Shown here: positions 50,943 to 54,980 of the stretch, one piece after another
How positions within the stretch are numbered: the first letter of the stretch is position 1
How the letters are laid out: the number at the start of each line of letters is the position of its first letter
Assembly: GCA_965371445.1 (NCBI GenBank)
Contig: CBDUYN010000022.1
Span: forward strand, 19,482-83,481
Source of the DNA: an uncultured bacterium
GTDB lineage: Bacteria > Acidobacteriota > Thermoanaerobaculia > Multivoradales > J023
Length of the DNA stretch: 64,000 bases
Reading direction: 5' to 3'
The notes under the pieces: generated by a model
Told to the model about the DNA's origin: nothing
Databases searched by the model: none
What the model saw: only the letters and a program-made list of their open reading frames with translations
Made by a program: the position numbers and the translations under genes

Positions 50943-51660
50943 CTACGTCGAGCTCCGTCCTGCTTCGTCAAGGACGGCTTCCGCAAGGATCGCCCCGAGC
51001 TCCACGACCGTCGAACGTCCCTCTTCGGCCGTCGCTTCCGCCGGGGCGCCGAAGTAGGCCTCGGGTCCTCCGGCCTCGGCGAAGTCCTTGCGGCCCTCAC
51101 GGATCGCCACGGAAAGCGACGACGGGTTCGGCTTGAGCGTCCGCCGGCGCTCTTCGCGCACCAGCTCGGGCTCCTGGGCCATCACGACGGAGCCCTCGTA
51201 GCGGCCGGCGTGGCAGGCGCCGCTCTTGAGCTCGTCGGTGAGGCGTAGCGCCCAGGGCTTGCGGGTGACGTCGGGGAAGACGACGGCGATCGATCCCGCT
51301 TCGCGGATCTTGGTCCGCGCCGCGTAGAGCGCGCCGAGGTGCGCCGGGTCGAAGTGAGCATTCGCAAAAGCGAGCGTCGCGATGCCCCAGCCGGCGAGCG
51401 CTTCGGCGACGTCGACGAGAAGCGAGGTCACCGTCTCAGGACGGACCGAGACCGTCCCCGGAAACGCCGCGGCAAAGGACGCCGCCGTGTAGTCGACCGG
51501 CGGCAGGACGATCGCCGGGACGCCGTGCTCGGCGAGCCGGCGCGCGCCGTCCTCGGCCATGGCGAGGGCGATGACGCGGTCGGTCGAGGTCGGCAGGTGC
51601 GGGCCGTGGGCTTCGACCGCGCCGGCCGGCAGGATCGCCACCGTGCGGGCGAGGTCGAGC
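50943..51660 (-). pseudogene. Creatininase (creatinine amidohydrolase) family gene, copy A: lacks the first ~25 N-terminal codons because homology ends at the low-GC insert. May still be translated from an internal start.
   Basis: ...LDLARTVAILPAGAVEAHGPHLPTSTDRVIALAMAEDGARRLAEHGVPAIVLPPVDY... aligns with copy C from residue about 26. Positions 51232-51577 are 100% identical to 54474-54819. Confidence 0.6.
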
Positions 51661-51686
51661 CGATGGCGAGACTCCGGAAGACCTTT

Positions 51687-53024
51687 TTATCGTTCCCAGA
51701 ACGGTGAGCCATATTCTATGGTTTTTCCCGTCAGATGCCCTATTTCAAGAACTTGCTCCAAGGTGGTATCTTGGAAGTATCCATGAGTTCTCTTGTCGGT
51801 TATGTCACCATTTTCCGGAATGCGACCCGGATAAATCCACAGACTGAAAACTCTGTGCCGGCCTTTAGAATCCGTATCGCCTTGAGAGAGCATGATATGC
51901 GTGTCACCACCTACAAATATCATTTTCCCTGCTGGAATCTGTTGAATCAACTTTCCCGTGCTCGCGCTGTAGATCTTTCCCGTTGTCGAGTTATATTTAA
52001 TCGACTCAAGCTTGCCACTCACAACGAGAAGTTTCTTCTTGTGATCATTGAAAGCCTTCGTAGCATCTGCCGTCGCCTTCTTTTGGGCCTTTCGTCTTTT
52101 CGCAGTATACTCCTCTGGGATATCTGCCATTTCCTTGTCGTACTTCTTAGACGCTACTGCGGCTGCACTCATGTAGACGCCTTGGATTTTACTTTTGCTA
52201 ATCACTCCCGCCTTGAATGCGGCAAAAACAAGAGCTTCATCGCAGGTCATCGTACTGTTTCTACCTTTCTCAGGTTGGTCGCGTCCGCCGCGCAGCCACT
52301 TGATAAAATCATTGGGGAATTCATGAAATCCTGCAATAACTTGAGATCGTCTGCGCTTTACTTTAGGAAGAGGGGTCCAAACCGGTGGTCCAATCACGCC
52401 TCTTCCGCGCCACTGTAGCTTCCCAACTTTTTTCTTGGTAACGCGAGGCTTCATGGTCCACCCATTTTTGGTGTATACCGGAATTCTTCTGCTTTTCTTG
52501 ATCTCTCTTGTGCCAACCCATTCTTTCGCTGTCTTCATTACGCGAGCCACTATAATCTGATTTATTAGTGCTTGCCTCTTTTTTCGATCAGTGGCGGAGA
52601 TGTTTCCGAGAAGGGCGTGTGTGTCTTGCTGGGTCATTTCCGACATCAGCTCGTTGAATCTCGCTGGCTTCTTCCTCTTCAGGTACGAGAGCTTGTTCAT
52701 CGCTCTTCTGTATTTCTTTCTATTCAATAGATATTTTAATCTTTTATAAGTCTTGCTCTTGTTTGCGTTGTCTTGCTGTCTGGCAATGATGGCATTCTGT
52801 TTGCCAGTGGTTGATATGTGTTGTGCCGTACAGGCCGGCTTCGTGCCCGTCATGCCGTGGCCCAAGAGCTCGGACCGCCTGAGTCTGGTCCCGAGATCGA
52901 GCATCGGTGACGATTCGTACCTTTTGTGATAGGCGGCTGTAAGAGGAGGTGCAAAGCGCCCCCCACCATGTGCCGAAGGAGATTTCGCATTCGTTTTGAA
53001 GCGGCTGATGTAATGAGTGCCCAT
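51687..53024 (-). CDS. Lysine-rich basic hypothetical protein (445 aa) encoded in ~43-45% GC DNA, foreign to this ~69% GC genome
   Basis: Uninterrupted 445-codon ORF in AT-rich DNA, which is improbable by chance. Highly basic (K/R-rich: KRLKYLLNRKKYRRAMNKLSYLKRKKPARF...). C-terminal region ...GGDTHIMLSQGDTDSKGRHRVFSLWIYPGRIPENGDITDKRTHGYF. No recognisable motif. Confidence 0.65.
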   Translation of the reverse strand: MGTHYISRFKTNAKSPSAHGGGRFAPPLTAAYHKRYESSPMLDLGTRLRRSELLGHGMTGTKPACTAQHISTTGKQNAIIARQQDNANKSKTYKRLKYLLNRKKYRRAMNKLSYLKRKKPARFNELMSEMTQQDTHALLGNISATDRKKRQALINQIIVARVMKTAKEWVGTREIKKSRRIPVYTKNGWTMKPRVTKKKVGKLQWRGRGVIGPPVWTPLPKVKRRRSQVIAGFHEFPNDFIKWLRGGRDQPEKGRNSTMTCDEALVFAAFKAGVISKSKIQGVYMSAAAVASKKYDKEMADIPEEYTAKRRKAQKKATADATKAFNDHKKKLLVVSGKLESIKYNSTTGKIYSASTGKLIQQIPAGKMIFVGGDTHIMLSQGDTDSKGRHRVFSLWIYPGRIPENGDITDKRTHGYFQDTTLEQVLEIGHLTGKTIEYGSPFWER

Positions 53025-53425
53025 GATGGCGCTCCTTCCGTTCCGCAGGTTCTCGGGCTAGCTAAACAGCTCCAGAGATACGCATGTCTTCTCTGAATTC
53101 CGGGTAGTCATCCTCCATTCGGCCGGGATCGTTCTCCACGCGTTCAGCGATCCTGGTTCACTTGGGGCCGGGCTTCGCGGACCTCCTCCGAGGCGAGCGC
53201 GCTTCCAGTGCTCTCGCCACCGCGTAGGTGACCATGACATCCCGGTCCGGGAGCTCTCGAAGCGGGTCTCCGATCGTGCGAGAAGCAGATGGTGACCTTA
53301 AAAACTATGCTCTCTGGCATCATGCACTTCTCCGATCCGGTACAGTATAGCATGTCCTGACACAGTAGGGCAAGCGTGGGTACGTTGAAGCTCGGCTCCG
53401 ATGAAAGGATCGGATGCCGCGCCGA

Positions 53426-53806
53426 CTAAGACACCCCCGAAGCGGACGAGCCGGAGAAGAAGATTGAACCGGGAAGCTCGGTTCGGGCGAGACCACCCTC
53501 TGCCAAGCTGATCACCCCGAGGACGGCTTTCGCGAGGATCGCCCCAAGCTCGGCGACCGTCGAGCGGCCCTCCTCGGTCGTCGCTTCGGCCGGGGCGCCG
53601 AAGGAGGCCTCGCCTCGGACGAGCGCCGGGACGCCGTGCTCGGCGAGGCGGCGGGCGTCGTCCTCGGCCATGGCCATGGCGAGGGCGACGGCGATGACGC
53701 GGTCGGTCGAGGTCGGCGGCTGCGGGCCGTGGGCCTCGACCGCGCCGGTCGGCAAGATCGCCGCCGTACGGGCGAAGTCGAGACCGTTGACCTCCGTCCA
53801 GGCCAT
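53426..53806 (-). pseudogene. Creatininase-family copy B: diverged remnant with a large internal deletion
   Basis: MAWTEVNGLDFARTAAILPTGAVEAHGPQPPTSTDRVIAVALAMAMAEDDARRLAEHGVPALV joins directly to the C-terminal RGEASFGAPAEATTEEGRSTVAELGAILAKAVLGV. The central ~130 codons are missing. Confidence 0.6.
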
Positions 53807-53869
53807 CTCCCACAGGCGCAGGACTTCCGGCTCCTCGGCGTCGGTCGGCGCTCAACTGCTCGGTCTGTC

Positions 53870-54060
53870 GATTCAGAATTACCGATCTTTGGCGGAGGTC
53901 AGCATCGGCCGAACCGGGTACCGTAAAGGGGAGCCATTGCCGGCATTGAGCTGCTTCATCGGACCCAACGGCAGCGGAGAGTCGAGCCTGCTTGATGCCT
54001 TCGGCTTCATGGCGGATTGGTTGACAGATGAGCTCACAGACTTAATGAAAAAAGGGCGGC
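53870..54060 (+). pseudogene. N-terminal fragment of an AAA_15/OLD-like (abortive-infection-type) ATPase
   Basis: LLGLSIQNYRSLAEVSI...LSCFIGPNGSGESSLLDAFGF matches the IKNFRS...LTVLIGxNGSGKSNLLDA N-terminal signature of OLD/AAA_15 ATPases. No start codon, and the frame terminates after ~90 codons. Confidence 0.5.
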
Positions 54061-54182
54061 ACCCGTCCTATCCCGGGAATGCCTGTCACTACTCAGCAGT
54101 TATCAGTACGATTCGTCGAAGCGCTCCTCAAAAGTAACGGAAAGTGTGACTTTTGGCAGGTCTTCTTCAAGCCTTGTGAGGC

Positions 54183-54980
54183 TCAGGCCGAAGTGCGGCC
54201 GATCCCCTCGAGGACGGCCTCCGCGAGGATGGCTCCGAGCTCCGCGACCGTCGAGCGTCCCTCTTCGGCCGTCGCTTCGGCCGGGGCGCCGAAATAGGCC
54301 TCGGGGCCTCCGGCCTCGGCGAAGTCCTTGCGGCCCTCGCGGATCGCCACGGAAAGCGACGACGGGTTCGGCGCAAGTGTGCGCCTGCGCTCCTCGCGCA
54401 CCAACTCGGGCTCCCGGGCCATCACCACGGAGCCCTCGTAGCGGCCGGCGTGGCAGGCGCCGCTCTTGAATTCGTCGGTGAGGCGTAGCGCCCAGGGCTT
54501 GCGGGTGACGTCGGGGAAGACGACGGCGATCGATCCCGCTTCGCGGATCTTGGTCCGCGCCGCGTAGAGCGCGCCGAGGTGCGCCGGGTCGAAGTGAGCA
54601 TTCGCAAAAGCGAGCGTCGCGATGCCCCAGCCGGCGAGCGCTTCGGCGACGTCGACGAGAAGCGAGGTCACCGTCTCAGGACGGACCGAGACCGTCCCCG
54701 GAAACGCCGCGGCAAAGGACGCCGCCGTGTAGTCGACCGGCGGCAGGACGATCGCCGGGACGCCGTGCTCGGCGAGCCGGCGCGCGCCGTCCTCGGCCAT
54801 GGCGAGGGCGATGATGCGGTCGGTCGAGGTCGGCAGGTGCGGGCCGTGGGCCTCGACCGCGCCGGTCGGCAGGATCGCCACCGTGCGCGCGAGGTCGAGG
54901 CGGTCGACCTCCGTCCAGGTCATCTCCCACAGACGCAGGACGGCCGGCTCTTCGGCGGTGGGCTCTCGGTCGGTGCTCAT
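54183..54980 (-). CDS. Creatininase (creatinine amidohydrolase) family protein, intact copy C
   Basis: MSTDREPTAEEPAVLRLWEMTWTEVDRLDLARTVAILPTGAVEAHGPHLPTSTDRIIALAMAEDGARRL... The full family N-terminus, including the metal-binding EAHG.HLP motif. 265 aa from this Met. Confidence 0.8.
   Translation of the reverse strand: MSTDREPTAEEPAVLRLWEMTWTEVDRLDLARTVAILPTGAVEAHGPHLPTSTDRIIALAMAEDGARRLAEHGVPAIVLPPVDYTAASFAAAFPGTVSVRPETVTSLLVDVAEALAGWGIATLAFANAHFDPAHLGALYAARTKIREAGSIAVVFPDVTRKPWALRLTDEFKSGACHAGRYEGSVVMAREPELVREERRRTLAPNPSSLSVAIREGRKDFAEAGGPEAYFGAPAEATAEEGRSTVAELGAILAEAVLEGIGRTSA

Follow-up and report, generated by a model that had tools for sequence, protein, structure and literature searches.

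Toxins associated with extracellular contractile injection systems (eCIS) have a described architecture in which an N-terminal DUF4157 domain is joined to a C-terminal toxin domain (PMC8213781). EAT14 from Chitinophaga rupis, laid out as DUF4157, LysM and a transglutaminase-like domain (PMC8213781, PMC11297309), is one such protein; with its transglutaminase-like domain of the Cys-Asp-His type, it kills E. coli and yeast (PMC11297309). In the C-terminal displacement, with orphan modules, at loci for rearrangement hotspot (Rhs), contact-dependent inhibition of growth (CDI) and type VI secretion system (T6SS) effectors, and in homology-facilitated illegitimate recombination (PMC5361080, PMC3240628), anchoring is through a stretch of homology, the process does without an integrase, and the outcome is an intact gene, foreign DNA and a displaced, 5'-truncated 3' fragment of that gene. 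The locus analysed here shares these traits. It occupies positions 50943-54980 of a 64,000-nucleotide stretch of DNA (hereafter the window; GenBank assembly GCA_965371445.1, contig CBDUYN010000022.1, positions 19,482 to 83,481 of the forward strand) from an uncultured bacterium of the Acidobacteriota, class Thermoanaerobaculia. An intact creatininase-family gene (copy C) and a displaced 3' fragment of such a gene (copy A) enclose an insert that contains a third, broken copy (B) and a 445-codon open reading frame (ORF), ORF445. A preliminary description of the locus had recognized the order of intact gene, foreign segment and displaced fragment correctly and had attributed it to a decayed integrative element. 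We consider the chances somewhat better than even (about 0.55) that the locus is a recombination scar produced by homology-anchored capture of foreign DNA and carrying an orphan toxin-module gene, ORF445.

The likeness to these systems is partial. In contrast to the Rhs, CDI and T6SS cases, the repeated gene here encodes a metabolic-type amidohydrolase and the toxin gene is a passenger of the spacer; moreover, copy B retains its 5' end and hence is not a simple displaced 3' fragment. As in eCIS-associated toxins, the ORF445-type domain occupies the C-terminal toxin slot behind DUF4157 in 19 of 97 homologues, and an adjacent immunity gene is missing for many of those toxins too. ORF445 itself differs from them in having a unique basic N-terminus instead of DUF4157, and no eCIS genes were present among the window ORFs that were scanned or read. 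EAT14 is a papain-superfamily Cys enzyme, as the ORF445 domain is predicted to be; the latter, however, fits neither Transglut_prok nor any other Pfam model, and its residues follow the order Cys...His(...Asp) rather than Cys...Asp...His. Overall, the locus is an ordinary recombination scar rather than a functioning multi-gene system, and its sole notable content is ORF445.

Two copies of a creatininase-family gene enclose foreign DNA

The locus comprises the following features, in window coordinates.

50943-51660, minus strand: copy A, a 5'-truncated creatininase-family gene directly upstream of sucC (PF02633, 158.6 bits, profile positions 18-237 of 238)
51232-51574, matching 54472-54814: tract of 343 bp identical between copies A and C (position-by-position comparison)
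51687-53024, minus strand: ORF445, an intact 445-codon foreign gene for a basic, stand-alone toxin-module protein
51690-52430, minus strand: toxin domain of ORF445, predicted NlpC/P60 fold (Cys261 codon at 52242-52244, His376 codon at 51897-51899, candidate third residue Asp385)
53025-53425: spacer S2, 58.6% guanine plus cytosine (GC), carrying the ribosome-binding site of ORF445 and, at minus-strand positions 53373-53344, a promoter-like site (promoter scan)
53426-53851, minus strand: copy B, a creatininase-family pseudogene (PF02633, 44.4 bits, profile positions 3-51)
53853-54053, plus strand: the N-terminal ~67 codons of an AAA_15-class defence-type ATPase (PADLOC HEC-01A, E 4e-17, profile positions 3-68 of 406)
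54054-54182: spacer S5, low GC, directly 3' of copy C
54183-54980, minus strand: copy C, an intact creatininase-family gene of 265 codons starting at the ATG of MSTDREP (PF02633, 179.9 bits, profile positions 2-237 of 238)

Read along the minus strand from copy C to copy A, the order is C, S5, ATPase stub (on the opposite strand), B, S2, ORF445 and A. Downstream of copy A lie sucC, sucD, an S51-like peptidase gene and ndk, while copy C is divergent from a PQQ_2/BamB-like gene at 55075-56658 on the plus strand. All three creatininase copies are on the minus strand and score above the Pfam cutoff of 31.3. With the NCBIfam equivalog models for creatininase, MftE and IolN, the scores of 111, 80 and 32 bits fell short of the respective cutoffs (172, 235 and 245), so that membership holds at the family level only. 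Copy A lacks approximately its first 36 codons but is open from there to its stop codon, and its homology to copy C ends at 51660.

For copies A and C, self-BLASTN and position-by-position comparison revealed a gapless direct repeat of 692 bp (50968-51659 and 54208-54899) at a constant offset of 3240 bp, with 27 mismatches among the 692 sites (96.1% identity). These mismatches are unevenly placed. The 343-bp tract contains none of them; the perfect tract thus exists as reported previously, although it had been given as 345 bp and its second pair of coordinates was a few bases off. On the 3' side of the tract, 23 mismatches fall in 264 bp (91.3% identity, close to the ~90% first described) and homology reaches both stop codons, whereas the 85 bp on the 5' side, up to the truncation of A at 51660, contain 4 mismatches (95% identity). 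When 27 mismatches were placed at random over 692 sites, no run of at least 343 bp arose in 200,000 placements. Chance falls far short of explaining such a tract, so A and C have indeed undergone recombination or gene conversion with each other. The gradient that the preliminary description took as the signature of conversion was misdescribed, however, since A and C remain highly identical on the 5' side of the tract, and a perfect tract flanked by divergence fits heteroduplex repair at a single crossover equally well. Between A and C, 34 codons differ, 23 of them synonymously and 11 non-synonymously. From this synonymous excess it follows that the ancestors of A and C were each under purifying selection rather than decaying in place.

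Copy B, whose nucleotide identity to A and C is 85-88%, consists of an N-terminal piece (53617-53840) fused to a C-terminal piece (53507-53612), with about 442 bp deleted internally according to BLASTN and the alignment. It also bears a 12-bp tandem insertion at 53667-53690 (GCCCTCGCCATG), reading AVALAMAMAED where copy C has ALAMAED, which is a mark of replication slippage inside a pseudogene. The condition of the three copies (A truncated at its 5' end, C intact, B internally deleted) is as first described, now confirmed by PF02633 matches and alignments, and their 3' flanks are mutually unrelated.

The insert between copies A and C measures 2.55 kb and has been put together from five or more unrelated segments. 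Its GC content is 48.5% over 51661-53060 (42-50% in 300-bp windows), compared with 66.8% for the window, and is thus higher than the ~43-45% originally given. The GC content at third codon positions is 0.52 in ORF445 versus 0.87-0.91 in neighbouring host genes, on which basis the segment between A and C is foreign, as had been claimed. The two repeat copies are joined to contrasting DNA: their outer halves (the 5' end of C and the 3' end of A) adjoin the high-GC host genes PQQ_2 and sucC, and their inner halves (the 3' end of C and the 5' end of A) adjoin low-GC, unassigned or fragmentary DNA. No Pfam match was obtained for S2 (in any frame), S5 or the N-terminus of ORF445 at E values up to 10, tblastx against the relatives' loci gave nothing significant for the same three segments, and no Rfam family was found in them.

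Within the insert, two gene fragments, copy B and the ATPase stub, abut head to head around 53846-53853 through their 5' ends, with no intergenic DNA. The stub is a pseudogene fragment. It resembles AAA_15/HEC-01A-type defence ATPases, the class that includes OLD, PtuA and AbiL, in matching the first 68 profile positions including the P-loop region, but no more than ~17% of the gene remains, its Walker A motif (GPNGSGES) has Glu in the position expected to hold Lys, and the Toprim or nuclease part is missing. Its score against Pfam AAA_15 (24.9 bits) is under the cutoff of 32.1; it has neither a full ABC-type domain nor an intact Walker A motif, and no Toprim domain. The earlier identification as an N-terminal ATPase fragment therefore stands, while its assignment as OLD-like is not borne out, since of an AAA_15-class ATPase nothing beyond the P-loop end remains. 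The closest relative by SucC (L088, 85% identity) carries an intact AAA_15 ATPase gene (417 aa) with a 239-aa partner right after ndk (L088:3818-5815), so defence-type ATPase genes do occur near the sucCD-ndk operon in this lineage. A derivation of the stub from that gene was rejected, the two being 37% identical over 51 aa.

ORF445 encodes a basic protein with a predicted Cys-His domain

The observed length of ORF445 is 445-456 codons, whereas the longest ORF in 500 shuffles of the segment had 244. It is preceded by a strong Shine-Dalgarno sequence (GGAAGGAG, 53032-53039) 7 nt before its ATG. The product is as basic as the preliminary description had noted, with a pI of 10.4, 53 Lys and 35 Arg residues and a net charge of +53. 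Residues 1-125 are unique and strongly basic; they are followed by a conserved helical lead-in (127-170), a K-rich insert (~173-198) in the form of a hairpin of ~25 residues, and a Cys-His domain (~199-445). This predicted catalytic domain has a pI of 9.9, compared with a median of 6.2 for the corresponding domains of homologues.

Pfam, NCBIfam, PHROG and PADLOC contain no family that matches ORF445, and a word-indexed protein search returned only the protein itself, whereas a profile of the domain retrieved 10 proteins, all annotated as hypothetical. The previous statement that the protein has no known motif is thus true for curated libraries but not beyond them, given that HMMER detects 108 relatives. 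In an alignment of 40 sequences, six columns are invariant (W243, C261, G366, H376, G382 and P399), and ORF445 retains all six. AlphaFold, when supplied with the alignment, produced a confident model (pLDDT 86.1, pTM 0.84), compared with a pLDDT of 40 in a single-sequence run. The modelled domain has a papain-like alpha+beta fold in which a helix begins at the Cys and a beta-strand at the His, so that C261 is predicted at a helix N-terminus and H376 on a beta-strand.

Among the closest known enzymes are the NlpC/P60 cysteine peptidases and amidases (clan CA, family C40), a group that also takes in CHAP endolysins and type VI amidase effectors. There too, a helix has the Cys at its N-terminus and the His lies on the beta-sheet that follows, and 3 of the 97 homologues of ORF445 have weak matches to NLPC_P60 or CHAP. 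On the other hand, ORF445 has ~10-15% identity to its structural matches and no match to Pfam NLPC_P60, a long helical insert separates the Cys helix from the His strand, and the conserved W-R-G-G-S-G-P-D lead-in does not belong to NlpC/P60. Judging from the model, the domain is a divergent member of the NlpC/P60 or papain-like superfamily with a predicted Cys261-His376 dyad, probably joined by Asp385. By analogy, it would act on an amide bond of a target-cell protein or of the cell wall, hydrolysing or modifying it. ORF445 may be expressed, and its product may be enzymatically active and toxic.

Two other sequences of the locus were considered as immunity gene for ORF445 and rejected. One is copy B, which is no more than a damaged creatininase gene; the other, a small ORF at 53144-53353, shares sequence with the promoter-like site and lacks homologues.

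The domain recurs behind different delivery regions

A HMMER scan of 1.84 billion cluster representatives with ORF445 yielded the 108 relatives, 50 of them below E 1e-10. Homology is limited to residues ~195-445 and the helical lead-in (127-170). The relatives range in size from 97 to 6183 residues; the domain sits mostly at their C-terminal end, and in many of them it forms the extreme C-terminus. A Pfam census of 97 homologues found it together with eCIS_core (DUF4157) in 19, WXG100 in 3, the papain-fold glutamine deamidase domain Gln_amidase in 2, LysM in 2 and the N-terminal domain of the T6SS protein Tse3 in 1, while the weak matches mentioned above were to NLPC_P60 in 2 and CHAP in 1 (E 2e-4 to 5e-4). 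Giant members also bear glycosyltransferase-type and other enzymatic modules. The same C-terminal domain is therefore recombined behind different N-terminal delivery or trafficking regions. Named sources of the family are Micromonospora, Actinoplanes, Actinoallomurus and the cyanobacterium Coleofasciculus, and all members are annotated either as hypothetical or with the name of the eCIS-core domain only. These findings bear out the earlier suggestion that the basic protein could be a leftover toxin-type cargo, as its C-terminal half is a module of predicted Cys-His NlpC/P60 fold common to eCIS-core, WXG100 and giant polymorphic toxins.

The genes around other members show a recurrent neighbour. 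In Coleofasciculus and one metagenomic contig, an AAA+ ATPase gene is followed by the toxin gene and then by a gene for a protein of ~490 residues. On an actinobacterial-type contig (L082), two tandem toxin-domain genes precede a gene for a 391-residue relative of this partner (25% identity, E 1e-32). The second tandem gene (L082:8692-9513), which directly follows the first, encodes a product with 26% identity to ORF445 (E 3e-17), from which it follows that toxin-domain genes of this family can occur in arrays. Overall, a partner protein of 391-491 residues is encoded immediately downstream in 3 of the 5 homologue loci examined (L089:12552-14024, L090:5828-7303 and L082:9510-10685), the three being unrelated to one another. 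The two cyanobacterial-type versions are 48% identical and start with a lipoprotein-like signal. The partner belongs to no Pfam family, tblastn found no match to it in the window, and no partner-type neighbour stands beside the stand-alone Actinoallomurus gene. It may be an immunity or helper protein.

We put forward only tentatively that the C-terminal 250 residues of ORF445 define an undescribed toxin family, with an NlpC/P60-fold Cys-His(-Asp) site and the W-R-G-G-S-G-P-D lead-in, which would be shuffled among eCIS (DUF4157), type VII (WXG100), type VI and giant actinobacterial toxins and whose dedicated downstream protein of ~400-490 residues may serve for immunity or help. On the same tentative proposal, the copy in the window would be active, recently transferred and stand-alone, with the delivery domain replaced by a basic N-terminal region (net charge +23) that has a function of its own.

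How the locus may have formed

The geometry of the locus fits homology-anchored capture better than a site-specific integrative element. A creatininase-family gene resident between the PQQ_2 beta-propeller gene and the sucC-sucD-S51-ndk block would have provided the homology anchor. The incoming DNA would already have been a mosaic, composed of most of a related creatininase gene with an AT-rich 3' flank, the ATPase stub, the older and decayed copy B, and ORF445. A single homologous crossover with a circularised fragment (Campbell-type), or homology-facilitated illegitimate recombination, a related route for linear DNA (PMC3240628, PMC5361080), could then have left the 692-bp stretch duplicated around the insert, with an intact hybrid gene, C, beside PQQ_2 and a 5'-truncated hybrid, A, beside sucC. 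The 343-bp perfect tract would mark the zone of crossover or heteroduplex repair, or else a later conversion between the repeats. A single crossover predicts that the outer halves of the repeats adjoin high-GC host genes and the inner halves low-GC or fragmentary DNA, and the flanks agree with this. Copy B and its head-to-head junction with the ATPase stub suggest that the donor was already mosaic or that several events took place. Most likely, ORF445 arrived recently and is an orphan among cargo genes, lacking neighbours that encode delivery machinery.

The surroundings of related genes were compared. Of the creatininase loci in 185,579 species genomes, the 80 nearest (identity no higher than 71%, with Acidobacteriota and Thermoanaerobaculia ranking first) are all single-copy and never stand beside sucCD, PQQ_2 or Uma2, and a metagenome scan with PQQ_2 gave only two distant matches. 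Relatives with an uninterrupted creatininase-sucCD arrangement were looked for and none was found. The three nearest SucC relatives (82-85% identity) all keep the order sucC, sucD and S51-like gene, with ndk next in 2 of the 3, but the gene upstream of sucC is serA in one and aat in another, and in the third it is an unassigned gene truncated where the contig stops, so that the insertion site is a synteny break-point. The ancestral state was not recovered by these searches (creatininase loci, PQQ_2 metagenome scan and nearest SucC relatives).

The results of the creatininase and PQQ_2 searches count against the capture reading, as do several other points. A simple crossover alone leaves copy B and its head-to-head junction with the ATPase stub unexplained, and classical homology-facilitated illegitimate recombination usually deletes, rather than duplicates, resident DNA. 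Since a relative with uninterrupted PQQ_2, creatininase and sucC was not found, the terms resident and incoming are assigned from the flanks only. The contig is very probably metagenome-assembled, its closest relatives all being metagenome-assembled genomes (MAGs). As for the toxin-module part of the reading, a sequence-profile search of the PDB with ORF445 returned nothing and Foldseek against the PDB nothing significant. Pfam detected no delivery domain (DUF4157, WXG100, PAAR, Rhs and similar) in ORF445. No eCIS, T6SS or type VII secretion system (T7SS) genes were present among the window ORFs scanned against Pfam (about half of the called genes) or in the translations read by eye, and no immunity gene candidate lies beside ORF445, whose stop is 27 bp from copy A.

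The alternatives to capture differ in what they require of the copies and of the insert between them. The creatininase gene might have multiplied in place to give an old tandem array of C, B and A, which then diverged, with A and C homogenised by conversion and with foreign DNA and deletions arising between them. The shared orientation of the three copies and the perfect tract both suit such paralogues, and the 85-88% nucleotide identity of B to A and C, against at most 71% amino acid identity for any creatininase of the species genomes, places all three in one narrow lineage. We nevertheless regard an array as unlikely: duplication would have copied intergenic DNA too, yet the three 3' flanks are unrelated, A is truncated at the exact start of the foreign DNA, and an array calls for more independent events than capture does (a pair of duplications, no fewer than three insertions, two deletions and one conversion). 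An assembly artefact appears to us less probable still. Formally, the structure equals a single-copy creatininase gene plus a circle of 3240 bp sharing the 343-bp tract, which would be ambiguous in a short-read graph; a 3.24-kb repeat-sharing path might have been threaded through that tract, or low-GC DNA of another organism joined to the contig. The abrupt fall of GC to 42-50% and the apparent origin of the genome from a metagenome, like that of its relatives, all of which are MAGs, would be in keeping with this. However, the breaks at 51660/51661, ~53846-53853 and 54182/54183 are outside the identical tract and have no repeat in common, which places those junctions in real molecules. Moreover, a replication gene is missing from the implied 3.24-kb circle, an assembler faced with repeats of this kind will normally end the contig and not usually thread through them, and the ORF445 sequence is listed under NCBI, ENA and Logan in the protein collection.

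The explanation favoured in the preliminary description, a site-specific integrative element that entered the creatininase gene with a replacement copy and subsequently lost its integrase and most of its cargo, seems to us the least probable of all. It would account for the order of intact gene, foreign DNA and displaced 3' fragment, which is its classic outcome, and remnants of toxin and defence genes are typical cargo of islands; homology-anchored recombination yields the same arrangement, though, and for that no integrase is needed. Positive evidence for an element is lacking. Every gene called from 47.4 to 59.7 kb could be assigned, and none is an integrase or recombinase, the spacers have no Pfam match, no excisionase was found, and the 64-kb window contains no tRNA or tmRNA gene. 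Short att-like direct repeats and terminal inverted repeats are likewise missing, the only flanking repeat being the gene copy itself, and its 692 bp of near-whole gene, 4% diverged, resemble neither att sites nor a short att overlap. The insert is only 2.55 kb long and is composed of fragments, and searches of 72,556 plasmids, of 50,697 phages and of IMG/VR matched neither it nor ORF445. An origin of the ORF445 segment as a miniature inverted-repeat transposable element or insertion sequence was also rejected, as it has neither terminal inverted repeats nor target duplications.

Other features of the window

At 50826-50871 on the plus strand, where a spacer separates copy A from sucC and both genes run the other way, a sub-threshold match to the Acido-Lenti-1 RNA motif (RF01687) was found. 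It covers the full model length with 26.4 bits, compared with a gathering score of 37 (E 0.005), and is consistent with an acidobacterial origin of the window. Further downstream, between the sucD stop and the S51-like peptidase gene, there is a perfect 35-bp tandem duplication at 48650-48719 (GAGCTCACAGCGTCCCCTTGGGGGGAACGAGGGGG, two copies).

Several large genes elsewhere in the window were also recorded. Two convergent genes encode giant STAND NTPases: the first (35114-38434, plus strand) has DUF4062, nSTAND1 and a C-terminal FGE-sulfatase-like domain, and the second (38445-42362, minus strand) has a protein kinase domain, nSTAND1/AAA_16 and the same C-terminal domain. The pair has a conflict-system-like architecture. 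Next to it, two adjacent genes on the plus strand (42386-44758 and 44713-46578) encode large secreted proteins without a Pfam family, whose near-identical signal peptides (M..HRMLTVIL..ILLAA) suggest that they are paralogues. A 1246-codon ORF at 11701-15441 on the minus strand also belongs to no Pfam family and has a GC content of ~60-62%, compared with the window mean of 66.8%.

Significance

If the capture reading is correct, the locus would provide a clean natural example of how an ordinary gene, by serving as homology anchor, can trap foreign DNA next to a core operon with no integrase at work. For the toxin domain carried by ORF445, none of Pfam, NCBIfam, PHROGs and PADLOC offers a model, and sequence searches reveal no solved structure. 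Yet actinobacteria and cyanobacteria have it repeatedly in the toxin position of eCIS, T7SS-type and multi-kilodalton polymorphic toxins. Now that its fold has been modelled with confidence, a catalytic dyad predicted and a candidate partner protein put forward, it is directly testable, and it would add one family to the effector catalogues that are used for annotating the cargo of injection systems.

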